Part shown: positions 2 through 45,030 of the stretch, piece by piece
Numbering within the stretch: position 1 is the stretch's first letter
Layout of the letters: each line of letters starts with the position of its first letter
Origin: an uncultured Verrucomicrobiota bacterium
GTDB lineage: Bacteria; Verrucomicrobiota; Kiritimatiellia; RFP12; UBA1067
DNA length: 64,000 nucleotides
NCBI GenBank assembly: GCA_946533675.1
Contig: CAMNBZ010000003.1
Location: 33,014 to 97,013, forward strand
Direction of reading: 5' to 3'
Notes under the pieces: model-generated
What the model was told of the DNA's origin: nothing
The model's database searches: none
Seen by the model: the letters and a program-made list of their open reading frames with translations, nothing else
Made by a program: the position numbers and the translations under genes

Positions 2-2395
2 AAGAGCTACTTCTACAGCTACATCCGCGACGGCCGCAGCAACTTCTACAACGGCGAGGTCGACAAGGCGGTGAAGATGACGTTCGTCACCGACAGCTAC
101 TTCCCGCCCGAATCGCCCGAGGCGGAGGAGGAGCAGAGCGACTATTCCGAGCTCTACGACCTCGCCGACGGCCAGTACCAGCCCTTCACGTACGACCAGC
201 TCCGCGAGGGCAACCGGACGACGCTGATGGACATCGTCGGGCGCAGCGGGCGATTGAACGACAGCCTCTCCACGCTCGGCATGGCCGCGCTCTTCGACTA
301 CCTCGACGAGGACCGCGTGCCGATCTCGCTCGCGATCCCGACCGTCGAACGCGCGCCGATGTGCGTCGCGCTCAAGCCGGGCTTCGACTCGTCCGCGCTC
401 CGGATCGAGGCGGATGCGAGCGACGTCTGCGGCAACGAGGACTGCACGAGCCCGGCGCCGACGACGGGACCGGCGGGCGGCACGGACCAGGTGTACGTGA
501 AGGTGTCCTACACGATCGACGGCCAGAAGTTCGCGGAGGGCCTCGGCGCGGGCATCAAGTCCGTCTTCGCCTATCCCTTCGCCCACGAGGACGCGATCTC
601 GGGCGAGAACTTCAAGGTCGACGGCAAGATGGCGCTCTTCTTCACGCTCGACGGCGACCCGATGGGCCTGAGGTCGAGCGCCGACGACGCGCTGCACATC
701 GCGAACACGGGCGAGCTGACGTCGGCGAACCCGACGCTGAAGGACGGCATCCTCAACATCCCCTTCGGCGCGGCGCAGCAGCTCGACCTCAAGTCGCAGA
801 ACCGCGATTCCGAGGAGGACGCCGTCAAGGAGCTGTCGATCGACACGCGCGGCGCGCGCGGCGTCGCCTCGACGCTCGGCCAGACGCCGGTCATGGAGGT
901 GACGTACACGTGGACGCGCACGTGGCAGGCCAACCCCAACACGGGCATTCTCACGCCGACGCCGAACACGCTCGAGGCCGCGCAGGCGGCGGGCGCGGGC
1001 TGCGGCTTCGGCGTCGCCAAGGCGCACTGCGGCCTGCCGCCGCTGTCGTCGCGCGGCGTCGTCCGGCCGGAGTACGCCAACGACAACCAGTTCCGCGACC
1101 TGATCAACGCCGGCAACGGCGGCGCGGCGTCGCTCAATCTCGCGCTGTGGGTGCGCGTGACCGACAAGAACAGCAAGACGGTCGATCTCGTGCCGGCCTC
1201 CGTCCTCGACGACAAGACGTTCAACAACATCGACAACGACCGCATCGTCACGCGCGTCGACCATCCGAACAGCAGCTGGCCGGTGATGCGCTTCGGCACG
1301 GGCATCCGGATCCGGTACGATTCGGAGTGGATGGAGGATACGGGCGCGACCGAGCAGCCGCTCCAGCTCAGCCCCGCGGCCGTGAAGGTGGACGATCCGC
1401 GCTTCAACCACGCGCCGGAAAGCTGGTACCAGGCGGCGAACGCGACCGCGAACGACTGGCTGAACAACACCACCGCGCCCGACCGCGACGGCGACATCTT
1501 CCTGGCGACGAGCGACCAGGGCTATCTCCAGTCGATCTACGAGCTCGCGCTGATTCCGAGCCTCGGCACGCGGCTCGACGCGAAGGGCGACGCCACCACG
1601 GGCCACTACGCGCGGCCCGACGGCCGCAGCGAGTTCGCCGCCAACGCCGGCGGCGCGCTCAACTCCGGCATCATGTGGAAGACGTACTGCGCCTACGACT
1701 GCGGCTCGGGGAGCGCCGACGACTTCGAGGGCTGCGGCTTCACGAGCGCGGGCACGGGCTTCAAGGTGAACCCCTACAGCGACCAGACGAACGTCGTCAT
1801 GGCGGCCTTCGCCAACACGCCCGTCGACTGGCGCATGGCCTCGACGAACAATCAGGAGGAGGCGCTGGAGGATCTGTCGGCGCAGGAGTTCAACTCGCAG
1901 TACGCCTGGAACGCGATGCAGAGCGACACGCGCATCGAGTACGCGAAGCTCGAGGCGATCGCCGGCGCGTTCATGGACAAGATGCGCGGCCGCGACACGA
2001 CGGGCGACGAGGGCGTGCCGGAGCCGTCCGGCGGCCGGGCGGACTGGAAGGCCGCGTTCGACGATCTCGACTGGGAGGGCCAGAACGAAAGCGATTTCTG
2101 CGGCGTGAACCTCGGCTCCACCAAGCTGTGGAGCGCCGACCGTTCGTTCCTCTACGGCTTCTGGCGCGACTGCTTCGCCGCGCGGCAGCAGCTCTTCCTC
2201 ATCTTCGTGCGCGCCGAACCGCTGATGATGGGCGGCGGCATGATGAGCCGGATTCCGCCGCAGCTCGGCGGCCGCGCGGTGGCGCTCGTCTGGCGCGACC
2301 CGACCGCGACCTCGGGCAACGTGTCGAACGCCGGCGAGTCCGGCAGCGGCTACCCGCACCGCACGCGCATCCTCTTCTACAAGCAGCTGGAGTAA
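2..2395 (+). CDS. large hypothetical protein, 5'-truncated by the window edge; possibly pseudopilus-associated
   Basis: Frame 2 is open from the first base (KSYFYSYIRDGRSNFYNGEVDKAVKMTF...), so the listed GTG at 71 is probably internal. Codon usage is GC3-rich like the neighbours. The TAA stop at 2393-2395 lies 7 nt before the pseudopilin ATG. No domain recognised by eye. The C-terminus (QQLFLIFVRAEP...GGRAVALVWRDP...RTRILFYKQLE) loosely resembles the last strands of GspK/PilX-type minor pseudopilins (weak). Confidence 0.7.
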   Translation, partial: KSYFYSYIRDGRSNFYNGEVDKAVKMTFVTDSYFPPESPEAEEEQSDYSELYDLADGQYQPFTYDQLREGNRTTLMDIVGRSGRLNDSLSTLGMAALFDYLDEDRVPISLAIPTVERAPMCVALKPGFDSSALRIEADASDVCGNEDCTSPAPTTGPAGGTDQVYVKVSYTIDGQKFAEGLGAGIKSVFAYPFAHEDAISGENFKVDGKMALFFTLDGDPMGLRSSADDALHIANTGELTSANPTLKDGILNIPFGAAQQLDLKSQNRDSEEDAVKELSIDTRGARGVASTLGQTPVMEVTYTWTRTWQANPNTGILTPTPNTLEAAQAAGAGCGFGVAKAHCGLPPLSSRGVVRPEYANDNQFRDLINAGNGGAASLNLALWVRVTDKNSKTVDLVPASVLDDKTFNNIDNDRIVTRVDHPNSSWPVMRFGTGIRIRYDSEWMEDTGATEQPLQLSPAAVKVDDPRFNHAPESWYQAANATANDWLNNTTAPDRDGDIFLATSDQGYLQSIYELALIPSLGTRLDAKGDATTGHYARPDGRSEFAANAGGALNSGIMWKTYCAYDCGSGSADDFEGCGFTSAGTGFKVNPYSDQTNVVMAAFANTPVDWRMASTNNQEEALEDLSAQEFNSQYAWNAMQSDTRIEYAKLEAIAGAFMDKMRGRDTTGDEGVPEPSGGRADWKAAFDDLDWEGQNESDFCGVNLGSTKLWSADRSFLYGFWRDCFAARQQLFLIFVRAEPLMMGGGMMSRIPPQLGGRAVALVWRDPTATSGNVSNAGESGSGYPHRTRILFYKQLE

Positions 2396-6127: not shown

Positions 6128-7738
6128 ATGAAAAAGCTGATGATGACGACAGTCGCAGCACTCGGTTTCGCCGCTCTGGCGCAGGCCGAAGTTCTGAACT
6201 CGACTGGGTTCGAAGACTACGTCAAAAATAATAATGATTTCGCGGTCAACACGAGTGATTCGGGCAGCCCCGATTCTGGTACGCAGTACTGGACAGGAAC
6301 GGGTGACTTCTCCCAGACCGTGCTGAAGACATACGGTGAGGATGTTGTTAAGCCGACGAATCTGCCGGACGATTTTGAAACCGCAGGCGACTACTTCCTG
6401 TCGGTCGATACGGGCAACGATGTGATGTACCGCAAGGCGGGCGCGGAGGCGGGCAGCGTCGACCTCAATCAAGGGGCGGTGTTCTTCGATGCCAATGTCA
6501 AGTTCACGGCGAGCGAGACGGATGTCGAGGCCTCGGACGGCGATAAGCTCCTCGTGTGGCTGAAGGGCGACGACACGAAGACCAACCTCGTTGTGACGGC
6601 GGGTCTTTACAATGCGCTCACGGGAGAGTATGATCCGACCAATTTCACCGTTGACGCCGTTGACGGTGATTATGCGGCTGATACCTGGTATCGCCTGACG
6701 GTCAAGGCTGCGGTTGACGACAACAAGCTCACCTATTTCAATGTCTACATTGATGGGGAACCGGTCAAGGCGACGGATAAGACGACCGATTTCTATAGCC
6801 TCGTTCAGACGGGTGTTAACAAGTATGTGATTGCCGAAGCGGGCTTCCAGGGCACGGGCGCGCTTGACAATGTGGTCTGGACGACGACCGATCCGTTCCC
6901 GCCGGTGGAGGTTGACGAGTTTACTGCAAGTGTGACGCTGGAACAGGTGCGTTTGGCGGGCAACGAGAATGATATTGTTGATGCATGGGCGCTTGAAGGC
7001 GAGGATAAAACGGGAACCTATGCTGCCACTGCGACTGTTGCGGTTGGTGACGATGCAAAGTTCGTCGTTCGCATGGTGAGTGCTTGGGATGTCACGGTGA
7101 CGGCGACGATTAACGGCGTCCAGGTTGATCAGGCGAACATTGTCAAGACGGATGGCGAGGGTGACGAAGAAGGTTCTTCCGTCTATACGATCACCATTGA
7201 CGGTTCAAAGTATGGTGACGGCGATACGGCTGCGTTGGTCATCACCATCACTGAAAACGAAGGCGGCGATGAGCCGGAAGATACAACCGAAATCAATGCA
7301 AATGGCACGGGCTATGTTGCGGACGAGGATGGCACCACTTACACCAAGGCCGCTGTTGAGGCGATGGTGACCGTGGTCGCGCCGAATGCCGACAGTCTGA
7401 GCAATGAGGCGAAGGCCGCGTACAATGCGTACTTCACCAAGACTGCGACCTACAATGCGGACACACATAAGTGGGAAGTGACCGCCGCGCTGAACGAGAC
7501 CGCGCTGAAAGCGGATGTCAAAGTTGCGGTTGAGGAGGCGCTGGCGGCCGTTGACGCGGGCGCGACAAGTGTGGCGCTTCCGGCCGGCTTCTACTACAAG
7601 GTCGAGAGCGGCAGCGCGCTGCCGATCGCGACGACCGCGACGGACGTCAGCACGGGCGCGAAGATCGAGGTCAAGGGCCTGACGAAAGCGGCGGGCTTCT
7701 TCAAGGTGAGCGTGGGCACGACGGAATTCGCTGAGTAA
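6128..7738 (+). CDS. secreted protein with N-terminal LamG/concanavalin-like jelly-roll and acidic T/D/E-rich C-terminal half
   Basis: The signal peptide is MKKLMMTTVAALGFAALAQA, preceded by a strong SD. The strand pattern is beta-sandwich-like (VFFDANVKFTA, KLLVWL, WYRLTV, FNVYIDGEPV, GALDNVVW). The C-terminal tail reads AAGFFKVSVGTTEFAE. The ORF-track start at 6041 (TTG) is upstream of the SD and is rejected. Confidence 0.85.
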   Translation: MKKLMMTTVAALGFAALAQAEVLNSTGFEDYVKNNNDFAVNTSDSGSPDSGTQYWTGTGDFSQTVLKTYGEDVVKPTNLPDDFETAGDYFLSVDTGNDVMYRKAGAEAGSVDLNQGAVFFDANVKFTASETDVEASDGDKLLVWLKGDDTKTNLVVTAGLYNALTGEYDPTNFTVDAVDGDYAADTWYRLTVKAAVDDNKLTYFNVYIDGEPVKATDKTTDFYSLVQTGVNKYVIAEAGFQGTGALDNVVWTTTDPFPPVEVDEFTASVTLEQVRLAGNENDIVDAWALEGEDKTGTYAATATVAVGDDAKFVVRMVSAWDVTVTATINGVQVDQANIVKTDGEGDEEGSSVYTITIDGSKYGDGDTAALVITITENEGGDEPEDTTEINANGTGYVADEDGTTYTKAAVEAMVTVVAPNADSLSNEAKAAYNAYFTKTATYNADTHKWEVTAALNETALKADVKVAVEEALAAVDAGATSVALPAGFYYKVESGSALPIATTATDVSTGAKIEVKGLTKAAGFFKVSVGTTEFAE

Positions 7739-9360: not shown

Positions 9361-20944
<11,584 letters not shown>

Positions 20945-21314: not shown

Positions 21315-24300
21315 ATGAAGATGAAACTGATGAAAGCACTCGTCCTGACCTTCGCCCTGGCGGCGGGGACGGCGGCACGCGCCGCCGGCGACCTGATCGA
21401 GATTCTGCCGTGCGACGCGACGGGCCAGACGCTCGCCGTGCCGGTCAGCTCGGTCGCGGATCCGATCGACTGCACCCCGCACTACTTCAAGCTGCGTCTC
21501 GTCAACCGCATCGGGTATTCGGCGTCGCAGCCGTGGGTGATGGTGCCGAAGGTGACGGGCGCGACCGACCCGCTGAAGATGTACGTCTACATCTCGGGCG
21601 AGCTGCGCGAGGCGGCGTACACCGGCACGACCGTTCCCAACGGCCTGACGACCGATTTCGTCTTCAGCTTCACGCCGCGTGCGGGCGATCTGGCGCTGCC
21701 GGTCGTGCTCGCGACCACGGCGGGCCGCGCGGACGTCTCGGGCCTCACCGAGGGGAGCATCGTCTACCGCCTGGCCAACGACCATCTCTGGGGCATCTAT
21801 CCGAACGGCGACACGACCCAGGACGAGGCCGTGCTGATCCTGAACGATTCGAACGAGGTGCATGCCTCGCGTCCCGAGGGCGGCGACTGGTCGAACGACT
21901 ACTCGCTCGCGGGCGCGGGCTTCTACGTGAAGGAGGTCGACTTCGACGCCAACGCGTACAGCGACACGGTCTGGCGTTCGATCAACTCGAACGACACGAC
22001 GTGCGTCAACACGGCGCTGCCGATGCTGAAGGTGAACAGCCCGGAGAACACGTCCTCGGCGTTCGTCTACGTGTGGACGAAGGATCCGGACGTGGTGGTC
22101 GTCGACGGCAACAGCGCGAGCATCGGCACCGAGTACGCGATCGACGGCACGGACGAGGACGGCCAGCCGCTCAAGACGAAGGGCCTCAAGATCCAGGTCG
22201 CGGCGAACAGCGACAGCAAGAGCTTCTACCTCAAGGCGCTGGGCGCGGTGGGCGCGACGACGACGCTCTTCATGGCGGACACGCCGACCAACATCTACTA
22301 CAACTCGGGCTCGGTGATCCCGAACTTCGTCACGCGCACGGTCCGCGTGGACGTGCCGAACCCGCCGGCCGCGAAGCTCTACTTCAACGGCGAGACGAGC
22401 ACGACGACGCTCGCGCTCGGCGCGGACGCGGACTACCAGACGACGAAGGCGACGGTGATGGTCGAGCTGAGCGAGGCGTACACCGCCGACGTCACGGTGA
22501 CGCTCGGCGCGAAGTACACCGACGCGACGGACGTGGACCTGGCCGCCAACGACTACATTTCGCTCTCGACGACGGACGGCACGGCGAGCTGGAGCCAGCC
22601 GGCCGCCCAGGTGACGATTCCGGCGGGCAGCACGATGGCGACGCTGTATCTCCACGTGCTGGGCGGCAGCTCGCAGACGAAGGACGGCATCATCCTGTCG
22701 GTCGCGTCGATCGACGGCGCGGGCGACCACTACGCGGCGGGCGCGCAGGCGACGCTGTCGATCAGCCCGACGACGCCGAAGATCGCGAACCCGGCGAACG
22801 GGGCTGTGTTCGAGGGCGCGCTCACGGGCGAATCGTTCCTCCTCGAGGATTTCCGCATCGACGATACGTACGCGAACCGCCTCAAGGGCACGACCGAGGG
22901 CTACACGGTCTTCTACAAGCGCACGTACGCGGCGGGCGGCGGCGACGCGAAGTTCCAGCAGGCGACGTTCACGAACGCGCTGGACGGCACGGCGAAGGAC
23001 ACGGCGAGCGTGCTCGGCCTCCGGCTCGCGAAGGCGGGCACGGCCACGGTGACGATGTACCTCCAGGCGCCGGACGGAACGAAGACGGCGACGGCGGACT
23101 ACGTGACGTTCACGGTCGAGGTCACCCAGTCGCCGCAGGTGACGGCGCAGGTGACGAGCGGCCTCAACGATGACGAGACGGCGAGCGAGGGCGCGACGCT
23201 CCAGGTCAAGTTCTTCCTGAGCGACGCCAACTCGGCGGACGGCAACCTCTACGCGTTCCTCGTGCCGGCGGACGAGGCGACGTCGAACAACGTGGACGTC
23301 TGCACCGCGCTCGCGGACAGCGGCCGGACGGGCGTCGAGATCCTGAACGGCGAGTCGGCCTCCCGGCTCTACGCGACGCTGAAGTTCAAGGACGGCTCGA
23401 CGATCGGCGATCTGATGACGTTCAACATCTTCCTGAGCGAGGACAAGACGCTCGGCGCGCCGGACTATGCGACTTATCCCGACTACGGCTACAAGACGTA
23501 CGACGGCTACGCGGACGGCTCGCTGATGATCTACGTCGTCAACGAGATTCCGAAGGTCGCGCTCGTGCAGATCAACGGCGTCGACGGCACGTCGATCGAC
23601 GGCGACATCGTCGAGGACGTCCAGACGTCGCAGGGCATCGAGTGCAAATTCGCGACGGTGGTGACCGAGCCGTCGGCGACGGACCTCACCGCGGCGGACG
23701 GCAAGGAATTCCTCGTGCAGTACACCTTCTACGACGGCACGTCGCTGCCGCAGGTGCGCACGGTCCCCGGCAACCCGAACGCGCTGACCGACGGCGTCTA
23801 CTCGACGGTGACGAACTTCACCTTCCAGTCGGCGGGCACCAACAAGGTGACGGTCGCGCTGAAGGACAAGGACATGGACGCCTACGGCGACAAGTTCACG
23901 TTCTACGTCATCGTCAACGCGACGCCCGGCGTGGAGATCACCTCGGGCCGCATGGACGCCTCGGCGGTCTATCCCGAGGACGAGACCGGCGCAATCAACG
24001 CGCCCCTCTCCGTGAGGCTCACCGCGACGCCCAACGACGCGCTGGAGATCGGTCTCAAGGTCGATCACGCGGTCGCGAGCGACACCTTCGCGCTGCCGAC
24101 GCTGAACCTGCCGGTCGAGAACCGCGAGATCACGCCCGGCGTCTTCGCGGACGTGTACGTGGTCACCTTCAACGCGGGCTACCGCAACCCGGCGCAGAAC
24201 ATCTACTTCACCGCGATCGACGGCACGGGCAACTCGGAGATCAACGGCGTGACGATCACCCCGTACGTGCTGACCGACACCGAATCGCCGTACGCGGGCA

Positions 24301-27300
24301 AGACGTACCGGGAGCTCTACACCAACCTCGTGCCCTTCACGATGTATCCGCAGGGCGTCGACCCCGTCATCGTGACGCCGTCGGAGGCGAGCGAGGTCAT
24401 GACGAACAAGACGTCGATCGGCGTCGACAACATCGTCAACTGGGCGGTGCGCGACATCGCGGGCGACTTCGCGCCGCCCGCGACGGTCGCGATCACGGTC
24501 GAGGGCGTGACGACGGTCATCTCCAACAACATCGACATCGCCGGCGGCAGCATCCGCGCGGTGAGCGGCTCCCACAAGTTCCAGTTTGACTCGACGGGCC
24601 CGAAGACGGTCATCCTGACGGTGACGGACAAGGACGGCAGGCCGGCCACGCGCACGATCCTCTACATGATCGATCCGTCGAAGAACGTCATCGTCTACCC
24701 GCACGGCGCGAACCGCTCGAACGTCTCGTCGATCTCCTCGCCCTACGTCAACGCGCAGGGCCTCGGCACCGGCTACGTGTGGCAGGACGGCACGCTCGTC
24801 GGCGACAACACGAAGAAGTTCACGAACCGCCGCGCGCTGTCGTTCGGCGTGACGGCGACCTCGGCGACGTTCGCCGGCATGGGCGACATGACCGGCTGGC
24901 TCGGCAACGGCGCCGCGAGCACGCTCGCGTACGACAGCTACCTCTACGGCTGGATCGTGACGGCGGGCGGCGAGGCGACGTTCACCGGCTACAGCCCGCA
25001 CTACGGCACGTACGCGGACTACGCGGCGGCGTTCGCCGACGCGGACAACTACGCGGCGACGGTGACGCTGCCGAGCGCCGACGAGTTCGACGAGACGGCC
25101 AACGCCTACGCCGACCGCTTCCTGGAGGCGATCTTCTCGCGCGAATGGCGCGCGGCGGACAACATGGGCGACATCAACGCCGACGGCGTGCCGGACTTCT
25201 TCGCCGTGGCGAAGAGCTACGCGAACGGCACGGTCCAGGAGGCGGACGGCACCGGCGCCGAGGCGCGCACGCAGATCGACACGCTGAACGACGACCTCGA
25301 CTTCCTGCCCGGGCGCATCGCCGTGCCGCTCGCACCCTCCACGTGGAGCGGCGACGACGGCAGTCCGTTCACCGCGCGGCTGGAGGTCCGCGGTTCCCAC
25401 AACGGCCTGAACTACGGCATGTTCCGCGCCGACAAGAAGGAGGCCGCCGACGGCTGGATCTCCGATCTCGACCTGAGCCTGGCCGAAAAGCTCTACCTCG
25501 TCAGCCACGCGCAGGCGAACGCGGGCGCGGCGCTGGCCGACGCGCTCCTGGCGACGCTGCCGGCGAACTACGTCGCCGGCGATCTGGCGGACGGCTGGCT
25601 GACGCCGACCAACGCGACGGAGCAGGCGGCGGCGAAAGCCTACATCGACTGGACCTGGAGCGGCTACGAAGAGGGCGATGCGCCCGCGAAGTGGGGCTTC
25701 ACGGTCGAGAACCGCACCGATCCGACGAGCGACGACACCGACGGCGACGGCCTGCCCGACGGCTATGAATACGCGCTGTGGTACGCGGCGACCGTCGGCA
25801 GCGTCGACGCGACCGGCAATCGCACGACGATCACCGGCACGCGGTTCGACCTTTCCGACATCGAAAGCACCGACGACGTCATCACGTCCGCCGACATCGC
25901 CGCGATCTACAACCCGAACGCATACCGGAAGTCGGCCGAGCAGGACACGGACAACGACGGCCTCTTCGATCTCGAGGAAATGCTGATCGGCACGAGCCCG
26001 ATCCACTGGGACACCGACAGCGACGGCCTGAGCGACCTCTACGAGGTGCTGTACAACCTCAATCCGCTGAAGGCGGCGACGGACAACAATACGCCCGACG
26101 GCGAGACCAACCACGACGGCGACTTCATGGCGCGCGCCTCCACGACGGCCGCCTACATGATCGTCGAGTCGGCGACGGGCGAGCTCTGGGCCTTCTCGAC
26201 CTACACGTACAGCGATGACGGAACGGCGGCGATCCTCACCGGCACCGGCTTCCCGGTCGCGCGGTTCAACGGCGGCTACATCCCGCGGACGCTCTACGTC
26301 ACCGAAGAGCTGATGACGCAGGCGGCGACGCTCACGTTCGAGACCGGCACGACGCTCGATTCGCACAGCGTCATATTCTCGACGCTCGACCTCTACCACG
26401 CCCAGGTCTACTGGTACAAGGGCTTCGATCCGCGCACCGGCTGGTACGTGAACGGCAGCAACGGGTCGCTGTCCACGACGAAGCGCTGGCTGAAGAACAA
26501 CGCGCCGATTCCGGGCGGTACGCCCGTCGACACGGCGGCCTACACCGCGCACGACGAGTACCTGCTCCTCAAGTTCCGCCAGATCACCGGCATGACGGTC
26601 CGCGCGGACCAGAAGCACACGATCCAGGGGTACATCACGCTCAACTGCACCAACCCGAGCGCCGAGACGGAGGCGGGCGCGACGATCGGCGACGGCACCA
26701 AGGAGTACGGTGCGTGCGGCAACGGCGCGGACACCGATTCCGACGGCGTGCCGGACGGCTGGGAACTGTACATCGGCGTCGATCCGCAGATCGACTTCCG
26801 CATCCCGAAGTCGAGCAGCGGCCACGACCCGCTCTACTGGGACGGGTACACGGACGGCTACGGGAACCTCATCGCGGCGATCGGCGACAATTCGGCCTAC
26901 GATGACGGCCTGACGCTCGTGGGCGAATACGCCGGCACCGATTCGACGCTCGCGTTCGCCGGCTGCGAAAGCATCTACGCGAACCATCCGTCGCAGGCGG
27001 GCAGCGTCCACGTCAACTGGTTCAACAAGTTCTTCCCGACCGATCCGCGCCAGATCGACACGGACGGCGACGGCATCAACGACGGCGCCGAGGGCACCTC
27101 CTGGAGCGAACTCTTCACGATGAACCGCTGGGGCCAGCGCGCGGCGACCAGCACGCTGGAGTACAAGGAGATCACCCACAACTTCATCTACGGTTCGCCG
27201 TCCGACAACGGCTCGCTCTGCATCCGCGGCGGCGGCCTGAACCCGACCTGCCTCGATACGGACGGCGACGGCCTGCCCGACCCGTGGGAACGCCAGTACG

Positions 27301-30300
27301 CCGGCGCGCTCTTCACGGGCACCAGCATCGTCGACAGCCAGTTCAAGCAGGGCGCGCCGGACACGTCGGTCTTCAACGACATCGCCGCCGCGCTCCTGGC
27401 CTTCGGCAGCTCGACCAACGTCGCGGAAGGCGGCTACCACATCCTCATGGGCATGGACGGCACCGCCAATGACGCCGCGACCGAGGTCCGGCTGGGCTCG
27501 CCCGATCTCGACTGGGACGGCGACGGCCTCCAGAACTGGCAGGAGTACATGGTGCAGGCGATGCGCCACTTCCGCTACGACGACTTCCACACGCCGCTGA
27601 TGGGCTTCGATGCGCCGAAGTTCGATCTGGGCAGCGGCACCTATCTGCCGGGCGGCTGGTTCGGCCGTGACGAGAACGGCGAGGGCCAGTTCCTCGAAAT
27701 GAGCTACTCGACGCGCTTCACGCCGGCGGAGCTGGCGACGCTGCAGGAGATCGGCTACACGAACTTCGTCGATTTCGTGACCCGCTACGAGGCGGCGGAC
27801 GAGACGCGCGACTACCTGCGCGACCTCGGCTACCTGGCCCTGCCGCCCCGCGAATGGGACCATGCGCGCGTGGACCTCGGCAAGCGGTACATGCTGCCGC
27901 CGAAGCTGATCCAGGAGAAGCCGCAGGTCACGACGGCCCGCCTGCCCACCGTCTGGCAGTTCACCGACGGCACGGCGGTCGACCTGACGGATCCCACGAC
28001 CTACGCCTCGGGCACGGTCGCGACCGGCGAGATCGGCGCGTTCTCGTTCCTCGGCATGTCCTGGTTCTGGGACGAGGCGACCGGCAAGTCGGTCGAGCCG
28101 TACATCCTGACGACCACCAATCTCGTCTTCACGACGACGGGCGCCGCCGGCTATGTCGGCACCGATCCGCGCCTGTGGGATACCGACGAGGACGGCATGG
28201 ACGACTACTGGGAGCTCTTCCACGGCCTCAACCCGATCCTGGGCGATCCGGGCCAGCCGAGCGAATCGGACGTCACCATCGTGTCGAACAACGTGACGAC
28301 CGTCGAGACGCTCACCACGTACGTCGGCGCGAAGGACGTCATCTACGACCGCTACTACTCCATCAGCGCGTGGAAGAACGGCTGGGTCGGCTTTGACCGC
28401 GAATGGGATGCGGCGGACAAGACGCCGCCGCTCGACGCGATCCGCTATCCGTGGATGATGGGCGTGAGCATGTGCGACGCCGACGGCGACGGCCTCAGAA
28501 ACGAGGAGGAGGCGCTGATGGCCAACCTCGCCTCGCCCGACGCCTACCATACCGACCCGTCGCCGCTGTGGATGACGGATTCGACCGTCGGTTCCTTCCA
28601 GGTGCCGGTGATGGAGGTCGAGACGGTGACGACGAACCTCACGACCGCCGCCGGGCTGCCGGTTCTGGACGGCACCGGCAATCCGATCGCGATCGACATG
28701 GTCGTGACGAACGTCAGCTCCTACCTGACGTTCCGCCGCAGCCCGTCGTATACGGCGCTCTACTACAACGATGACGCGATGACCGCGTCGCCGTTCGGCA
28801 CGGCGCAGTTCGCGTCGTACGAGATGCACGAAGGCTACGATACCGACGGCGACTTCCGCAGCGACAAGACCGAGATGGAGAAGGTGGTCGAGACGACGAG
28901 CGATCCGCTGGACTTCGACGACATCAGCCGCCGCCAGTCCATCCACTTCGGCGGCAAGGACGATCCGGGCGTCGCGCTGACGTTCGAGCCGATCCGTCGC
29001 AACGCCAACGGGCAGTCGCTCTTCCGCCAGTTCACGGTGGAGGCGTGGGTGCGGCCGGAAGCTCCGGCGGCCGGCGAACGCCAGTATGTCGTCACGCGCG
29101 GCATCAACTATCCCGCGTGGGATCTCCTCAACTCCAACACCGTCGTGCGCCTCAACTTCGCGCTCGGCATCGACGAGAGCGGCCGTTCGCTCGCGCGCTT
29201 CGACAGCTCGACGGACGAGGGCTTCGTGGAGATCACCGGCTCGGCGCTCCCGGCGGACACGTGGGTGCACCTCGCGCTGACGTTCGACGGCGAGACGCTC
29301 CGGCTCTATGAAAACGCCGTGGAGATGAGCTCGCTGCCGACGACGATGATCCCGGCCAACGGCGTCCATGGCCAGATGCAGGATCCGCAGTACGCGCGCG
29401 GCTTCCCGTACAACACCTACAGCGCCTACCCGGCGGCGACCGCCCTCGGCGGCAGCCCGCGCGCGGCGGCGTTCGAGGCGGGCGCGGCGGCCGGCGCGGC
29501 GTGGGAGACGCTCGCGGGCGATCTCTTCAAGGGCAGCGTCGACGAAGTGCGCATCTGGGACGGCGCGCGCACGCTCGACCAGATCGCGGCCGACTACAGG
29601 AAGCGCTACTCGGTCAGCGACGTGAAGGCGCTGCGCGACAGGATCGTCGCCCAGCGTCGGGAGGGCGCGACGCGCAACGACAACGACGCCGAGGGCACGC
29701 TCGATCCCGAGCTGATCCAGCACTACAACTTCACGGCGCTGCCCGGCGCGACCGAGGCGCAGTACGTCCAGAAGGTCCCGGCGGGCTTCGCGGCGAACGT
29801 GCTCGCGCTCGTGCGCGATCCGGACGACGCGGAGATGAGCGACCTCGTCAAGGTCGGCTGGTGGAACGACATCCTGACGAACGCGACGATCGCGGTCAAC
29901 CAGGTCTACACCTCGCCGCACGTCGTGCCGTGGATCCAGAACACGGTCGCCCACCTGCCGCGCGTGAGCGGCACGGTGCTGGACAGCGTGTACTGGAGCG
30001 AGAACTACGCGGGCTACACGCCGGCCTCGTTCCACAGCCTCGGCTCGTTCACGTTCCCGAACGCGATGAATCCCTACAGCTTCACGTCGCTCAAGCTGGA
30101 GGAGGACTATGCGCTCAACAAGTTCCTCAAGCTCGGCGACGGCCTGTACAGCATCTACTACTCCGACATCCGCTACGAGTTCACCGGCACGAGCGACCTC
30201 GTTCCGCTCGGCTCGGCGTTCGCGCAGCGCCTCGCGGAAAGCTGGGACGGCGAGGGCGCGGAGGACGTCTGGGCGATCACGACGGACGGCACGGCCCTTG

Positions 30301-33300
30301 ACGGCGATCCGGACGGCGCGGGCATCCCGCAGTGGGCGCGCGACGCCGGCTACACGACGGCGGAGGCGTACGTCTACGCGCTGGCCCACGGCCTGATCCC
30401 GGGCGGCATCGATCCGGCCTACGCGCAGACCGCGGACATGGACGGCGACGGCCTGCCCGACTGGTGGGAGGTGCTGAAGGGCGTCAGCGAGATGGGCGCG
30501 AACGACGACCCGGATCACGACGGCCTGTCGAACTACCAGGAATACCTCATCTCCGAGGGCGCGGCATTCGGCCGGGGCACCGGCGCCGACGGCTGGCCCG
30601 TCGGTCTCAACCCGCTCGCGGCGATCACCGACAAGTCGGAGGGCTTCGTGCGCGACTACTTCCGCAAGGGCGGCGCGGACAAGACGAACTGGTATCTCGG
30701 CGAAATCATCGGAGACCATGACTTCATGGAAGACTGGTGGGAGGCGGGCTATCCCCGGAGCTACGCGAATCCGGGCGTCTACGATCCGCACGACGACACG
30801 GACGGCGACGGCTGGACCAACTGGGAGGAGCTGCGCTACAGCCGCTTCACCTCGACGATCGCGGCCGACCGCATCTCGCATATCGTCGGCGACTCCGAAA
30901 TCAAGGACATGCCGGTTCCGACGCTGCGCCTGTCGCTCGCCTACAACGGCAGCCAGCAGGTGGGCGAGGCGCCGATCGTCATCCAGACCTACTCGAAGCG
31001 CGGAGCCGAAAGCGCCGACGCGACGTTCACGGTCCAGCGCGGCGAATCGGAGGAGCTCACGCGCTACATCGGCAAGTGGAGCGACCGCGTCGTCCACGGC
31101 ACGCTGACGCCGGGCCACATCAACGCCAAGTCGCTCGACATCGAGTTCGCGGCCGTCGACAGCGATTCGGAATACGTGGTGCAGTTCGTCGGCCTGGAAG
31201 ACGTCATCCCCGGCAGCACCGGACGCTTCTACCCGCTGACCTACGACGAGTACATGCAGCTGTACAACACCTACGGCTCGAACCGCGTGGTGCTGCAGAC
31301 GACGTCCGCCTTCGTCTGGAGCCAGTTCAACCAGGCCAACGGCGTCACGGTCGGCGACGAGGGCTACATCCGCCTGCTGGGCGAGCGCGTCGGCACGATC
31401 GATCTGGAGACCGGCGCGTACGATCTCGACCTCGGGCCGTTCGCCGAACACGGGCTGACCGGCACCAACGGCACCTACGCGCTGTCGAGCACCGTGCTGC
31501 GCTTCAAGTACACCTCGACCGGACCGAAACTCGCCGACAACCGTCTGGATCTCTACCTCGGCGAGGCCGGCTCGGGATACGTGCGCGGCGGAACGAACAC
31601 GATCACCGCGTTCTACGATCTGGACGGCAATGGCGTCTACACCCCCGGCGAGCCCTTCGGCGTGGCCGAGGGCGTGGACGTGGGCTGGTTCCACTCGGCC
31701 GAGACCGTCATCGAGCTGACCGACACCACGGCGATCCTGCCGCGCGTGGACGTGACGACGCTCGCGAGCGACCGCAGCGCCGTGCTGGGCGACGCCGGCG
31801 GCGTTTCGGCCGAGGCCGTGCTCGCGGTCGGCGACGCCGCCGAGGGCGCCGCGGCGCAGACATCCGGCATCGCCGGCACCTACCACATCGTGCGCACGGC
31901 CGTCAACGGCACGGAGCTCCCGTCGCGCACCACGGTTCTCTCCAAGACGCTGACGTACGCCGGCCGCAGCTACCTGTGCGAGGGCGACGTGACCCGCACC
32001 GGCAGCCTCGGCCTCGACTGGGGCGCGCTGGACGCGGCGGCCGCGCGTGTCGGCATCGCGCCCGCCGACATCTCGCGCGTGACCTACGCCCTCGAGCGCG
32101 TCACCGTGTCCGAGGAGACGGGCCTGCCGGAGACCGAGGAGCTGATGACGTTCGTCAACACGTTCAACACCATCCGCGGCACCGCCCGGGCGGTCGCGCC
32201 GATCCAGGGCGCCGCCGTCGTCCAGGCCGCGCCGACGTTCGTCTGGACGAGCGAGGACGAGACGATGACCGCCTTCCGTCTGCAGGTGTGCGACGACGAG
32301 GGATCGATCGTCTATGATTCCGGCGCGAAGCTCCTGCCGGCGCGGCTGAACGGCACCTACACGTTCACGCCCGACCTGTATGTCGACTTCGCGGCCACCA
32401 ATGGCGCGCCGGTCTTCGCGGACGGCGGCAGCTACCGCTGGCGCGTGGGGCTCCTGAACGCCAAGTTCGCGACGATTGACGAAGCGGCCGACGCGGACTG
32501 GAGCGACTGGAGCGACTTCGCGACGGGTGTCGCGAGCACGGACGGCCAGCTGACCGGCTACGGCTCGGCGGCGGCGGCGGTGCGCTACTACGGTCCCGCC
32601 GCGGGCGACGAGGCCGCGAACATCCTCGTCGAGGCGTACGACACGCCGGACTTCTCCGGCGCCCCGCGCGCCCGGGCGCGTCTGGCAGACCTCGCGCTCC
32701 TCGGCGACCGCGCCGATCTGACGACGACCAACGCGGTGCTGCGCGGCCTCGAGCCCGGCAAGATCTATCTCGTCGCGTTCATCGACCGCAACAACAACGG
32801 CGTGCGCGACCGCTACGAATCCTGGGGCTATGCCAACCAGGTCGACGTGCACACCCCGGACATCTACACGCCGGCGAGCGTGGAGGTGAAGGCCGAGGCG
32901 GTCAAGACGTCCGCGGCGGTGATCTACATCGAGGATACCGATCTCAACAAGAACGGCGTGCCCGATCCGCTGGAAAGCCTGGACGACCTCCAGACGGCCG
33001 ATGCCGCGATCACTGACGTCAGCCGGGATGTCGACAGCGACGGCGACGGTCTCACGGACGATGACGAGACGGGCGTCCACGGAACCGATCCGAACCAGGC
33101 GGATACGGACGGCGACGGCATGCCCGACGGCTGGGAGGTTGAAAACGGCACCAATCCGCTGGCGGATGACGGCGCGACGGCGCTCGACGGCGACGTGATG
33201 GCGTACGCGGAGCTGAAGGGCCAGACGGTGTTCACGGCGACCGACGGAACCGAGACGAAGTCCGTCTGGGTGAAGGCGAGCGACACCGCGCGGGCGGTCC

Positions 33301-36300
33301 AGGTCGGCGACACGCTGACGCCCGAGACGGCGGGGAACTACACGTTCGTCTCGCTCTTCCCGTACGGAAGCAATCAGTCGTGGGTCTACTGCGCAGGCGC
33401 CGAGACCGCGCCGGCCGACGGCACGACATGGCAGGTGACCGCGGTCACGAACGTGCCGGTCGCGCTCGTCCACGCGCAGGTCTACGATCACTACGGGTAC
33501 AACCCGCGCACGGCCAACCCGACCGTCTCCAGCAACGAGTGGACCTCGGTCCATTCCAAGGCGTTCACGGCGCTCGACAAGTACCTCGTGACGAAGTGGC
33601 TGGCGGCGCTCGGCCTGACGGACGCGGCGGACTTCACGCTCGACGCGGCGACGGCGGATACGAACGGCAACGGCATCCCGGACGGCTGGGAGCTCTACGT
33701 GATGTTCGGCCCGGCGGGCGCGACCGCGACGGTCGACGAGGCGAAGATCTCGCCGTGGAAGAGCGCGGACTACGTGCGCGACTACGCCAACACGCCCGAC
33801 GGCGGACGCCTGACGATCCTCGACGAGTACGACCAGGGCAGCTGGCCGACCGATCCGTGGAGCATCGACACCGACGGCGACGGCGTGTTCGACGTCTACG
33901 CCTACCTCTATCACCTCAAGGGCGACCAGGCCGGTGCGGACGCCGACGGCGACGGCCTGAGCAACTACGCGGAATATCTCGTCAGCGAGGTCTTCCAGAT
34001 CGTCAAGGTCGATCCGAACCAGGCGATGACCGACGGCTCGACGCTCGACTACTACCGGAAGTTCGGCGAGCTGTACCTCGGCGAGGTCTTCACCGACCAC
34101 GACCGCGTCCGCGACCTCTGGGAGGCGCTGTACGAGCGCGGCACCATCGACGGCATCGACTACGCGGCGCGCGGCATCTACGATCCGGACGCGGACCGCG
34201 ACGGCGACGGCTGGAGCAACTACGCCGAGTTCCGGGCCGGCACGAGCCCGGCGCGGCAGACGAGCGCGGGCATCGACGACTTCATGCTGATCGAGCATCC
34301 CGTCCCGGTGGTGGAGATGGAGGTCGTCTACAACGGCACGGCCGACATCGAGGGCCGCACGCTCACCGTGAAGGCGTGGAACGAGGCGGACGATCCCGAC
34401 GCGCTCAAGGCGCCGACGGCGACCTGGACGGTCTCGACGTTGAACGAAAGCGGCTCCGCCACGCAGCAGAACACGACGACCAGCGAGGAGGTGCGCGAGA
34501 AGTACATCGGCCAGATGCCGACCGGCACGCGGACGTACTACCTCGGTTCCGGCGCGATCAAGGAGGGCTCGTTCAAGCTCTGCATCAAGGACAAGAACTA
34601 CGTGGAGGGCCAGATCGTCGAACTGCTGGGCCAGCGGTACTTCCAGCCGACCGGCTACGGCGACGCCGACGCCGCGCTGTGGTACTACGACGTGATCGAC
34701 CAGGGCGGCAAGCTCGTGCAGTCCGGCGGCATCTTCGCCGAGTCGCACCAGGTCGGCACGATCGACTACGATACGGGCCGCGTCACGATCGACTTCGACG
34801 ACGAGGAGTTCACGGACGAGCTGTACGTGGGCGATCCGTCCCAGGCGGCCGGCGCCTCGGGCAACAACGGCAACAACGGGAACACGACGACCTACCACGG
34901 CCTCAATCCGCCGACCTGCTACGTCAAGCTCGTCTGGTCGCCGGCGACGACCATCCCGGTGAAGGGCCGCCACTACCTGAGCGACGCGACGACGGGCTTC
35001 CTGCGCGAGGGCGCGACGACGTTCACGGTCGAGGCCGCGGCCTCCGACAGCGACGTCGACCAGAATTCGACCTCGACGGCGAAGGCCGGTCTCTACGGCG
35101 TCGTCCGCGGCGTGGACGTCGGCTGGGCGGGCGCCAAGTTCAAGGTGGAGCTGACGGACTTCAGCCCGGTGACGCCGCGCGTCGACCTGTGGGCGGACAC
35201 GCCCGACCGGACGGATCTCGTCCCGATCGAGGATCCGCGCGTCAACTCGTCGTCGAACGTGCTGGAGCTCGTGACCGCCGAGGGCGCGAACGCCCGCGTG
35301 CGCGTCGTCCGCTTCGCGATCAACGGCTATCCGATCGCCGCGACCTGGCCGGGTCAGGACCTCGACGAGGTCGTCTACGAGAACTTCTACAGCGTGGACG
35401 GCCGCACGCAGCTCACGGAACTCGACTTCCTGAACGACGGGGCGTTTGACATCGACTGGACGGACGACTTCAACCGTACGGTCGCGGGTTCGAGCGGCGC
35501 AACGGTCAATTCGACGCTCGTCGGGACGCTCGGCAGCGGTTCGTCCATCACCAACATCCAGTACCTCGTGGTGGTCGGCGACGGCGACGCGAACTGGGGC
35601 CGCGGCGACGGCACGAACACCGTTTACGCGCTCTCGACGCTGATCACGCGCCGCTTCGACCGGACGCGGGCGACGCCGGTGGCCGTGGCGGTGGACGGCC
35701 TCCAGTACGCGGCGCGTCCCACGTTCACGTGGCGCATGGAGGGCGAGGATGAGCGCGTGGCCCGGTTCGGATCGAGCTACACGGCCTTCAAGCTGCAGGT
35801 GCGCAAGGGCGACACGGTGATCTACGACTCCGGCATCCGCCGCGCGCCGGTCACCGATGCGAACGGCAACTTCGTCTGGACGGCGCCGATCTGCGCGGGC
35901 AGCCTGCTGCAGGACAACGCCTTCTACGGCACGACCGACAGCTACAACTGGCGCGTGACGATGTACAACGCGAAGTTCCGCACCGACTCCTGGTCGGCCC
36001 AGAACGGCGCGTCGGTCTTCACGACGGCGGTCAACGCGCAGCAGGAGGTCAACGACCACGGCTACTCCTCCATCCGCGTGGCGGTCAAGTACGCCGGTCC
36101 GTCGATCGTCCTGGAGAAGCAGGCGGACCTCGCGACGGCGCAGGGCAAGGTCGTCGTCCAGGCGTTCACGACGCCCGACTTCAGCGGCGAGCCGCTGGCG
36201 CAGGGTCTGGCGACGAACGAGGTCGACAGCCTCGTGCGCGCGACGGCCAACGCGACGCTGAAGGGCCTGGCCGCGACGGGCACCTACTACGTGCGCGCGT

Positions 36301-41220: not shown

Positions 41221-42831
41221 ATGGCCAGCAAGACATTGACATTGAACATCGGCGCGTCGTCGGTCACGCTCGCCGAATACGAGCTGGGCGCGAAGCCGAA
41301 GCTCGTGAACTACGGCACGGCCGCGCTCGCCGCGCCGCTCGACTCGGGCAACGCGGGGACGATCCTCGCGCCCGCGCTCCTGGAGATCGTCCGCGAGAAG
41401 GGCATCAAGCCCGGCAAGGTGGCGATCGCCGTCTCGGGCCAGATGGTCTTCCCGCGCTTCGCGGCGATCCCGTTCGCGGGCAGCGACCAGGCGAAGTTCG
41501 AGCAGCTGGTCCGCTACGAGGTCGAGCAGAACGTGCCGTTCCCGATCGACGAGATGATCTGCGACCGGCAGGTGCTGGGCGAGACCGAGAACGGCGACAA
41601 GTCGGTGATGATCGTCGCGGCGAAGATCGAGCAGATCGAGGCGATCACGGACGCGGTGGCGGCGGCGGGCTTCACGCCGGAGCTCGTGGACGTGGCGCCG
41701 CTCGCGCTCGCGAACGCGCTCAAGGCGAACCGCCCGGGCGCGGACGACTGCGCGATCATCCTCGACATCGGCGCGAAGACGACCTCGCTCGTGGTGGTCG
41801 AGGGCGACAAGCTCTACAACCGCTCGATCCCGGTGGCGGGCAACACGCTCACCAAGGAGATCGCGCAGAAGCTCGGCTGCACGCTCGACGAGGCCGAGGC
41901 GTTCAAGCGCGAGAAGGCGTACGTCTCGCTCGGCGGCGTGATGGAGGACGACGACGCGACGCTCGACACGATCTCGAAGGTGTGCCGCGCGGTGATGACG
42001 CGCCTCAACGCGGAGATTTCGCGCTCGATGAACTTCTACCGCTCGCAGCAGGGCGGCGGGGCGCCGACGAAGCTGTACCTGACGGGCGGCACGGCGCTGC
42101 TGCCGCAGCTCGCCGAGTTCTTCCAGGATTCGCTCCAGATCGACGTCGAGTTCTTCAACCCGTTCGAGACGATCGGCACGGGCGGCGCGGTCGACGCGGC
42201 CGCGCTCGAGACGGACGTCGCGTTTCTCGGCGCGACGGCGGGCCTCGCGCTGCACGCGGCGGGCAAGGCGGAGCTGGCGATCAACTTGATGCCGCCGTCG
42301 ATCCTCGCGGCGCGCGCGGAAGTGCGCAAGATCCCCGTCGTGGCGGCGGGCGCGGTCGCGTTCGTGGCGGCGGCGGTCTGCCTCCTCCTGGCCGTCGGCC
42401 ACGGCAAGGCGGTCGTCGAGGCGCAGTACGACGCCATCGAAAGCAAGGCGAGCGTGCTCAAGGGCTTCGAGGCGAAGATCAAGACGGCGCAGAACCGCGA
42501 GGAGCAGGCGCGCGCCGACGCGGAGGCGCTGCGGCAGCTCGTCGTCCGGCGCGGCGCGGCGGTGACGCAGATCAACGCGATCCGCCAGGCGATCGGCGAG
42601 GATCTGTGGATCGAGAAGTGGGAGGCGGGCCGCGTGACGCTGCGCGGCTGGAAGGACCGCGTGGCGTTCTTCTCCCGGCGCAACGCCGGCAAGACCGCGC
42701 CGGAGATCGTCGTCGCGCGGCTGAAGGAGAATCCGGCCGTCGACCCGGATTCCGTGAAGGTGATCGACATGTCGAGCTTCGGCAAGGGCGACTGCGTCGA
42801 GCAGTATGTAGTGGAGGTGAAGTTTAAATGA
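41221..42831 (+). CDS. pilM: type IV pilus assembly protein PilM (actin-like ATPase fold) fused to a PilN-like TM/coiled-coil segment
   Basis: The PilM-like N-terminal ~350 aa include LNIGASSVTLAEY, VPFPIDEMICD, ILDIGAKTTSLVVV, RSIPVAGNTLT and LYLTGGTALLP. The PilN hallmark I-N-L-M-P (ELAINLMPPSILAARAE) follows, then the TM helix VVAAGAVAFVAAAVCLLLAV and a coiled coil. Confidence 0.85.
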   Translation: MASKTLTLNIGASSVTLAEYELGAKPKLVNYGTAALAAPLDSGNAGTILAPALLEIVREKGIKPGKVAIAVSGQMVFPRFAAIPFAGSDQAKFEQLVRYEVEQNVPFPIDEMICDRQVLGETENGDKSVMIVAAKIEQIEAITDAVAAAGFTPELVDVAPLALANALKANRPGADDCAIILDIGAKTTSLVVVEGDKLYNRSIPVAGNTLTKEIAQKLGCTLDEAEAFKREKAYVSLGGVMEDDDATLDTISKVCRAVMTRLNAEISRSMNFYRSQQGGGAPTKLYLTGGTALLPQLAEFFQDSLQIDVEFFNPFETIGTGGAVDAAALETDVAFLGATAGLALHAAGKAELAINLMPPSILAARAEVRKIPVVAAGAVAFVAAAVCLLLAVGHGKAVVEAQYDAIESKASVLKGFEAKIKTAQNREEQARADAEALRQLVVRRGAAVTQINAIRQAIGEDLWIEKWEAGRVTLRGWKDRVAFFSRRNAGKTAPEIVVARLKENPAVDPDSVKVIDMSSFGKGDCVEQYVVEVKFK

Positions 42832-43838
42832 ACAGGAACCAAATCACGATGGCCGCGATCGGCGGCGTGGCGCTCGTCGCGGTGCTGGCGGTCGGCTATC
42901 TGACCTACTCCGCGTGGGCGGAGCAGGGCGAGAAGGCCGAGGACCTGGAGACGGCGCTCGGCAACGTCCGGCGCATCAATTCGGCGAAGATCGCGCCGAA
43001 GTCGGAATCGGTGGCGGCGATCGACGCGAACGCGCAGAAGCTGGACGCCTGGCGCACGGAGGTGCTGGCCCTCGCGACGGCCGGCGACTTCGCGGCCGAC
43101 GGCGCGGCGACGCCGGAGTCGTTCAAGCAGAAGATGGTCGTCGAGGCGCGCGAGCTCGCGAAGCTGCCCGGCGGCGTTAACGGGAACATCGTCAAGGAGG
43201 ACTTCGACTTCGGCTTCAAGGACTACATCATCGGCGGCAGCATGCCCCCGCGCGAGCGGCTGGATGCGCTCCAGCGCCAGTGGTCGGAGGTGTCGCTGCT
43301 CGTCAAGATCCTCGCGCGCTGCGGCGCGCGCGAGCTGAAGGCCGTCACGGTGGGCGCGGCGGCCGAGGCGCCGAAGGAAGAGGAGGAGCAGCCGAAGCGC
43401 CGCGGCCCGCGCAAGAACGCGGCGAAGGAGATCGTCGCCAAGGACCCGGCGACGCCCCAGAGCTACGAGCTGAAGTTCACGGCGAAGCCGGCGGCGTTCG
43501 TGCGGATCATCGATGCGTGCGCGATCATCGAGCGCTTCATCGTGGTCGACGGCTTCTCGTTCGCGAAGGAGAAGGATACGCTCGCCGAGATCTTCGGCGG
43601 CAAGGAGAAGACGGAAACGTCCGGCGGCGGCCGGCGCGGGCGCGGGCGGCGGCATCAGCCGGCGGCCGAGGAGCAGGAGGTGGCGGCCGAGGAGGTCAAC
43701 CGCAAGGGGCTCGTGACCGACCCCGAGCTGGACGAGCCGCTGACGGTGACGTTGAAACTGACGACCTATGACTTCGGCACCGCCGCGGCGGCGAAGGAAG
43801 CCGGGGAGTCCGAGGAAGCGAAGGAGGTGGCGGAATGA
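42828..43838 (+). CDS. PilO-like / Amuc_1100-family membrane-anchored protein
   Basis: An ATGA overlap couples it to pilM. The N-terminal TM helix is ITMAAIGGVALVAVLAVGYL. Blocks are colinear with my recollection of Amuc_1100: INSAKIAP, LVKILARCGARELKAV, SYELKFTAKPAAFVRIIDA...ERFIVVDGFSF and LTVTLKLTTYDF. No alignment was run. Confidence 0.7.
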   Translation: MNRNQITMAAIGGVALVAVLAVGYLTYSAWAEQGEKAEDLETALGNVRRINSAKIAPKSESVAAIDANAQKLDAWRTEVLALATAGDFAADGAATPESFKQKMVVEARELAKLPGGVNGNIVKEDFDFGFKDYIIGGSMPPRERLDALQRQWSEVSLLVKILARCGARELKAVTVGAAAEAPKEEEEQPKRRGPRKNAAKEIVAKDPATPQSYELKFTAKPAAFVRIIDACAIIERFIVVDGFSFAKEKDTLAEIFGGKEKTETSGGGRRGRGRRHQPAAEEQEVAAEEVNRKGLVTDPELDEPLTVTLKLTTYDFGTAAAAKEAGESEEAKEVAE

Positions 43839-44980: not shown

Positions 44981-44998
44981 GAAAAAATAGTTTATAAT
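44970..44998 (+). promoter_or_regulatory. sigma70-like promoter: TTGAAC - 17 nt - TATAAT upstream of the secretin gene
   Basis: The -35 is at 44970-44975 and the -10 at 44993-44998. An AAGGAG SD at 45014-45019 precedes the ATG at 45031. Confidence 0.55.
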
Positions 44999-45030
44999 AT
45001 CAACACAGTCAACAAGGAGCAACGTTCGAT

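Follow-up and report, generated by a model that had tools for sequence, protein, structure and literature searches.

The window, by which we mean the whole 64,000-nucleotide stretch of DNA analysed here (G000:C3:33014-97013), belongs to the genome of an uncultured Kiritimatiellia bacterium (2.6 Mb in 93 contigs, 90% complete, 66.7% GC) whose close relatives are metagenome-assembled genomes of gut and rumen Kiritimatiellia from goat, sheep, deer, yak, horse and human. Our subject is the C-terminal end common to three exported proteins encoded in it: the product of the gene at 6128-7738 (E), giant protein 2 (G2) and a Listeria-Bacteroides-repeat protein (LB). All three end in G/M-F-[FY]-K-V-x-[VL], essentially where an initial annotation, made from the letters of the window, had placed this tail. 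The tail is very probably the last strand of a fibronectin type III (FN3)-like end module. The genes and their modules are as follows (lengths in amino acids, aa).

6128..7738 (+): gene E, a 536-aa exported protein with signal peptide MKKLMMTTVAALGFAALAQA before EV, closed by an FN3-like end module
7493..7735 (+): FN3-like C-terminal end module of E, with C-strand motif PAGFYYKVES and final strand GFFKVSV
7691..7738 (+): last beta-strand of E, A-G-F-F-K-V-S-V, then a 7-aa variable tail GTTEFAE and a TAA stop
21315..37073 (+): giant protein 2 (G2), 5252 aa, signal peptide MKMKLMKALVLTFALAAGTAARA
36768..37070 (+): divergent FN3-like end module of G2, with a ~20-aa insertion, ending SGFFKVKLEEVVVP
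50800..54282 (+): Listeria-Bacteroides-repeat protein (LB), 1160 aa, signal peptide MKKVLALLAVLLAAMPSLAS, 7 Flg_new repeats
53986..54279 (+): FN3-like end module of LB, ending TMFYKVKVIAK

The C-termini read ...AAGFFKVSVGTTEFAE in E (stop at 7736-7738), ...KSGFFKVKLEEVVVP in G2 (stop at 37071-37073) and ...PTMFYKVKVIAK in LB (stop at 54280-54282). The passenger part of E matched no Pfam or NCBIfam family.

A single domain family at the C-terminus

Genes of the source genome were called with a crude, self-trained codon-usage caller (1772 genes, 84% coverage), and signal peptides with a crude hydrophobicity rule that scored carriers of the module and the background proteome alike. Within the last 30 residues of this proteome the pattern [FY][FY][KR][VILW] is 5.2 times denser than elsewhere (30 occurrences per 53,160 residues, versus 73 per 675,186). 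About 22 of these 30 matches belong to one domain family and the other 8 lie near the background expectation of ~6; the C-terminal excess is thus due to a single family. With a hidden Markov model (HMM) of the last 95 residues, one significant copy is found per protein and it is always terminal. There are about 23 copies in the genome: all 23 six-frame matches end 0-15 aa before the stop, one per protein, and one HMM iteration within the genome brought in no further members.

A second motif, PGLYY, is common to the motif-bearing proteins and lies ~40 aa upstream of the tail. It is this second conserved motif, together with the sandwich predicted by AlphaFold2 (AF2), that makes the feature a domain and not a linear tag. 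One could still suppose that the last ~12-16 residues act as an autonomous linear signal, like the beta-signal of outer-membrane proteins or a type I secretion signal, since G-F-[FY]-[KR]-V is the best conserved stretch and falls 6-24 aa from the end. This is very improbable: conservation reaches ~80 aa upstream and takes in the second motif, AF2 folds the tail motif as an integral strand of the sandwich, and what follows that strand varies both in length (0-15 aa) and in sequence, with no terminal aromatic (the last residues are E, P, K, N, R and so on). The carriers, moreover, have Sec signal peptides, unlike type I substrates. The terminal beta-strand of the initial annotation is therefore borne out by AF2 and the alignments, but its short autonomous tail gives way to the last strand of a folded ~80-aa domain. 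It had named, as an outcome fatal to the idea of a tag, that the motif might simply be the last strand of one common Pfam domain. The domain is indeed a common one, but it is found in neither Pfam nor NCBIfam, and it sits almost exclusively at the C-terminus.

The first profiles of the module in the source genome (profile A1) included the three window tails, and A1 built in this way matches the module of E at G000:C3:40506-40733 (E-value 7e-11). The profile was rebuilt from 18 non-window copies to test the window tails independently, and E was recovered both by the leave-out HMM (E-value 2e-4) and by profile-profile comparison with hhalign (88%, E-value 3e-6). Taken singly, the sequences of LB and G2 fall short of significance against the 18-copy profile (E-values 0.3 and 1.2). 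For G2 and LB, 29 and 10 orthologue tails, respectively, were gathered from the genus, and the resulting profiles compared with A3, the profile of the canonical tandem RFYRV module discussed below. The LB profile matches A3 (96.9%, E-value 1.6e-10) as well as the 18 other copies of its own genome (90.9%, E-value 1.1e-6), and the G2 profile matches A3 with the ~20-aa insertion noted above (90.7%, E-value 1.3e-6). The membership of LB and G2 is drawn from these orthologue-tail profiles, and with the leave-out match of E it follows that all three window tails are members. In other species of the genus, orthologues of G2 lie in open frames of 7,854, 10,726 and 10,452 aa (L028, L029 and L036, in G003, G367 and G019, respectively), so that the length of this protein varies about two-fold while its C-terminal module is kept.

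The initial annotation had cited five tails, of which E, G2 and LB prove homologous; the other two, offered as weaker versions, are chance matches:

20872..20889 (+): PVFFKWAL in giant protein 1 (G1), chance match outside the family
2369..2395 (+): ILFYKQLE at the end of the first open reading frame (ORF1), chance match outside the family

PVFFKWAL returned an E-value of 0.47 in a 5-sequence database, at a different position, and ILFYKQLE no match; hhalign probabilities were 0.1-0.3% for both. The 16-nt string GGCTTCTTCAAGGTGA, reported as common to E and G2, does occur exactly twice in the window (7694 and 37032), with 0 expected by shuffling. Given the codon bias of the genome, however, identical codons for GFFKV have p = 0.13, so the shared 16-mer adds nothing beyond peptide identity. 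Gene conversion as its origin was rejected on the same ground, that codon bias suffices.

Domain anatomy

With its 75-95 residues, the module forms a fibronectin-III-like beta-sandwich at the very end of the protein. The AF2 model of one 241-aa member, encoded on contig C53 (81 sequences in the alignment), has a predicted local distance difference test score (pLDDT) of 89.7 and a predicted template-modelling score of 0.83, and consists of two immunoglobulin (Ig)-like sandwiches. The second of these (residues 170-240) has six strands, with FLSYGLT, the GLYY motif, as the third and AFFKVG as the last. For the tail of E alone (21 paralogues) the model is weak (pLDDT 64), although it places FFKVSVG as the last strand; its Foldseek matches (HU/IHF, E > 0.1) are meaningless.

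Alignment with genuine fn3 domains proceeds strand for strand: a B strand, a C strand holding 'GLYY', and an F strand holding 'G-F-[FY]-[KR]-V-x-V', the site of the tyrosine corner. On P0189, a protein with Pfam-confirmed fn3 repeats, the alignment of A1 covers the B, C and F strands and runs as far as RFYRVVAT, ~14 residues before the fn3 G strand. This alignment and the match of A1 to A3 make the tail very probably the counterpart of the F strand in an FN3-like module cut short at that point, which in the predicted structure would have six strands and no G strand. The likeness to Fibronectin type III (PF00041) thus extends over the B, C and F strands, including x-Y-R/K-V-x-V, but the module is terminal, not an internal spacer, and appears to end after its F strand. 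PF00041 itself matched none of 21 copies, even at E <= 10.

Neither Pfam nor NCBIfam gave a consistent match for the module, the A1 HMM found nothing below E 0.2 among PDB sequences, and a search of the literature by motif strings and topic returned nothing relevant to it. The module is uncatalogued, with no Pfam or NCBIfam model.

Relation to the RFYRV end module and distribution

By profile comparison, the module is a divergent, Lys-rich Kiritimatiellia variant of a large RFYRV end module of Verrucomicrobiota that is likewise absent from Pfam, NCBIfam and the literature searched. A1 and A3 align in hhalign at 96.4% (E-value 1.4e-9), or at 96.1% when the window copies are left out of A1. The canonical HMM (A3) detected no copy in the source genome or four relatives, and it is therefore only the profile-profile comparison that links the local copies to the RFYRV module. 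The two share strand order, extreme C-terminal position and Sec-exported, unrelated passengers. They differ in that the local copies have lost the B-strand Trp ('ITW'), have GLYY in place of Y-x-LQYK in the C strand, and often carry Lys in place of Arg (FYKV, FFKV). The tandem repeat of the canonical form reads I-T-W-x-S-x-x-G-x-x-Y-x-L-Q-Y-K...W...R-F-Y-R-V and gives only weak fn3 and tissue-factor signals in Pfam. Upstream TSP3-like calcium loops are absent from most local copies.

A protein search with A1 over 1.84 billion representative proteins returned 521 clusters at E <= 1e-3, and the statistics of position and copy number from this search refer to the best 147 of these. A single copy is present in 132 of the 147, and in 129 of those 132 it ends within 15 aa of the C-terminus; the remaining 15 clusters hold 2-7 tandem copies, the last of which is terminal in 11. 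Within the genus, 21 of 24 sampled genomes carry the module, with up to 19 copies each. Detection declines with phylogenetic distance, which is partly an effect of HMM sensitivity. G002, G019 and G020 were considered as module-free genomes for a comparison of gene content and rejected, as the G2 orthologue of G019 ends in SGFYRVEIEQ; zero A1 matches therefore reflect HMM sensitivity.

Cargo and retention of the module

At least 17 of 19 carriers with a complete N-terminus have a signal peptide of Sec type that lacks a lipobox, compared with 16% of the proteome (Fisher p = 4e-12), which agrees with the initial annotation in confining the tails to signal-peptide proteins. The passengers are unrelated to one another and span at least 8 unrelated Pfam architectures: CotH kinase with lamin-tail, phytase-like esterase, GH18, BspA-type leucine-rich repeats (LRR), PATR repeats, Listeria-Bacteroides repeats, CHB_HEX_C/Fn3_assoc and fn3. 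Giant adhesins are among the carriers too, and several carriers, such as E and a two-domain subfamily of 240 aa, fall into no family.

The module is also retained vertically. Among 120 phytase-like orthologues, with identities as low as 38-40%, the majority keep [GR]F[FY][RK]V or something close to it as their ending. A few (P0338, P0382, P0383, P0385 and P0386) end instead in a TSP3-like calcium-loop tail (…DVDGDGFSSLKEYQKGTDPWDKS…) of the pattern DxDGDG...GTDPWD, and in 0 of the 120 has the module been swapped for a PEP-CTERM signal.

Comparison with known C-terminal systems

The tails lack a transmembrane (TM) helix and any PEP-CTERM, LPXTG or type IX secretion system (T9SS) HMM signature, as the initial annotation had said. 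The residues after the last strand number 0-15 and are polar or variable. Because there is no TM helix, the module is not a signal of the sortase type. It resembles the PEP-CTERM/exosortase system in being a C-terminal feature of exported proteins of the Planctomycetes-Verrucomicrobia-Chlamydiae (PVC) bacteria, and the two coexist in this genome. PEP-CTERM, however, is a short motif (~25 aa) that includes a TM helix and a basic cluster, whereas the module folds into a soluble domain and lacks any hydrophobic helix. A genome-wide scan for the PEP-CTERM pattern found 4 signals, none of them on a module carrier.

The closest parallel is with the type A C-terminal domain of T9SS, an Ig-like sandwich of 70-100 aa at the extreme C-terminus of Sec cargo, on surface or secreted proteins of unrelated function, present in tens of copies per genome. 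It might be asked whether the module is a divergent member of that class, exported and attached by type IX secretion. In its favour are the common size class and fold, the strict confinement to the C-terminus of Sec cargo, the dozens of copies that a genome may hold and the resemblance of the G-x-Y-x-V-x-V strand. We nevertheless regard it as scarcely credible. TIGR04183 and PF18962 match no copy, and SprA, PorU and PorV were not found in the 90% complete genome (these families are scarcely detected in the control genomes, and the negatives are individually weak). GldK gave only sub-threshold matches to the sulfatase-modifying domain (52 bits versus a cut-off of 350). The module belongs, moreover, to a different phylum, and to our knowledge T9SS is known only from the Fibrobacteres-Chlorobi-Bacteroidetes (FCB) group.

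Possible role in sorting or anchoring

We hypothesize that the end module is a sorting or anchoring device for exported proteins, a proposal whose chances we judge to be evenly balanced. Sorting, docking or anchoring is a plausible fit to the anatomy, and the module is read as an address domain because it is strictly and only C-terminal, occurs once per protein, and is carried by Sec cargo whose unrelated passengers are of extracellular type. Sec export and cleavage of the signal peptide would come first, after which the folded end module would serve as a common address or anchor, by which a subset of the proteins passing through the periplasm would be directed to the cell surface or kept there. 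It may bind one shared partner, either a protein of the outer membrane or surface or a glycan of the surface. With its G strand apparently missing, the module may present an open beta-edge along the F strand, which could be the binding surface and be completed by a partner. In its working the module would be analogous to the T9SS C-terminal domain of Bacteroidota, outside that system.

Several points weigh against such a role. Neither a partner nor a cleavage site nor machinery has been identified for the module. Carrier genes are scattered in the genome, and their neighbourhoods hold no shared machinery gene, except for the PEP-CTERM genes beside the small-protein subfamily described below. 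Secreted proteins often contain FN3 domains as passive spacers, and the conserved residues are mostly core-type aromatics, as in any stable fold. Foldseek with the 241-aa model returned only generic two-Ig-domain matches (PECAM-1 D1D2, DUF3823). Internal tandem arrays of 3-8 copies occur in the wider family, so the fold needs no free C-terminus. The missing G strand was deduced from alignments and a single secondary-structure string of AF2 rather than from coordinates, and both the gene calls (own caller) and the signal-peptide rule (hydrophobicity) are crude.

Part of this evidence bears equally on a passive FN3-type end domain, a spacer, stabiliser or cap that owes its position to 3'-end accretion of modular secreted proteins. 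Homology to ordinary fn3 repeats, the tandem internal arrays of relatives, core aromatics at the conserved positions and the lack of any machinery found speak for it. But spacer fn3 domains are normally internal, while 129 of 132 single copies from the protein search and 23 of 23 in this genome end no more than 15 aa from the stop. Enzymes, LRR proteins and giant adhesins also all carry the same module, and it is kept in orthologues down to 40% identity. We therefore consider a passive cap unlikely, if far from negligible; were the module only a structural cap, the gain would be a better domain annotation.

The hydrolases and adhesin-type repeats among the passengers, and the life of the organism as a gut or rumen glycan degrader, raise a further alternative: a domain akin to a carbohydrate-binding module (CBM) or lectin, tethering exoproteins to external host or dietary glycan or to mucus and not to the cell's own surface. 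C-terminal beta-sandwich CBMs are common in secreted enzymes. This too is improbable, as no CBM family matches, there is no sign of a conserved, exposed platform of aromatics outside the core motifs, and the genes of the 240-aa carriers are paired with those of presumably cell-anchored PEP-CTERM proteins, pointing to the cell surface.

A sorting or anchoring role would matter for Verrucomicrobiota at large, gut and rumen Kiritimatiellia included. These bacteria export many enzymes and giant adhesin-like proteins, but they lack a T9SS, the exported proteins bear no autotransporter barrels, and PEP-CTERM substrates are few. One uncatalogued domain is found on ~23 unrelated exported proteins of a 2.6 Mb genome and on hundreds of clusters elsewhere, and it would offer a handle on surface delivery, both defining a set of cargo and serving as bait in a search for the partner. 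The family deserves a model of its own, with which its carriers would no longer be annotated as featureless hypotheticals.

PEP-CTERM gene pairs

The genome encodes a single exosortase (PF09721, 165 bits; G000:C54:3935-4705, minus strand, L076) with four detectable substrates. All four PEP-CTERM signals, sought in six frames, lie on ~170-aa proteins ending ...VVPEPTSGLLMLFGLAGLALRRKRRA, and each of their genes adjoins the gene for a ~240-aa protein of two Ig domains with the FN3-like tail. The pairs all lie outside the window:

C53:4442-9445: PEP-CTERM and small-protein pair
C2:77248-80507: PEP-CTERM and small-protein pair
C1:94803-96976: PEP-CTERM and small-protein pair
C10:22160-25853: PEP-CTERM and small-protein pair

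Several of the four also adjoin a large protein ending in G-x-W-[YF]-[VI]. Among 80 loci of small-protein homologues in other gut Kiritimatiellia (L077-L156), 63 show one, and only one, PEP-CTERM signal on the same strand, with none on the opposite strand; the gene pair is conserved in gut Kiritimatiellia.

The pairing is the only hint of a cell-anchored partner. In a more specific version of the sorting hypothesis, the module would be the docking half of a PVC-specific surface display, its F-strand edge completed by a strand of a cell-anchored receptor, for which the ~120-aa domain of the PEP-CTERM proteins paired with the small module-bearing proteins is a candidate. The prospects of this version are slim. 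If it is true, a single anchor would serve dozens of unrelated exoproteins, much as in cohesin-dockerin pairing or donor-strand complementation.

In five proteins of 397-418 aa (P0004, P0006, P0007, P0114 and P0118) the PEP-CTERM protein reads in frame into the signal peptide of the small protein, with no stop at the junction (…PEPTSGL…LRRRR…AAFAAQND…). These are either real Rosetta-stone fusions or the result of lost stop codons. Genes for the small protein were also found on contigs binned as a Methanomethylophilaceae archaeon, Azospirillum sp. and Gemmiger sp. (L093, L094 and L097); these Kiritimatiellia-type genes are probably binning contamination.

Other features of the window

Between G2 and LB lies a PilM-secretin cluster, for which no link to module carriers was found:

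41242..48573: PilM-secretin cluster, with the PilM-like gene at 41242-42831

It includes two genes without a clear family, one of which has a bacterial TSP3 repeat (43835-44980), and a secretin gene (45031-48573) whose product is unusually long (1180 aa) with an acidic, Ala/Glu-rich N-terminus. Rho and a small kinase-like gene are located between this cluster and the LB gene. Near the start of the window, ORF1, which ends at 2395, begins upstream of the window and has a pseudopilin-like hydrophobic N-terminus. It is followed at 2403-3314 by a gene whose product is a prepilin-type N-methylation protein (MKKGFTLVELLVVIGILGILSAVL…), a type characteristic of PVC bacteria.

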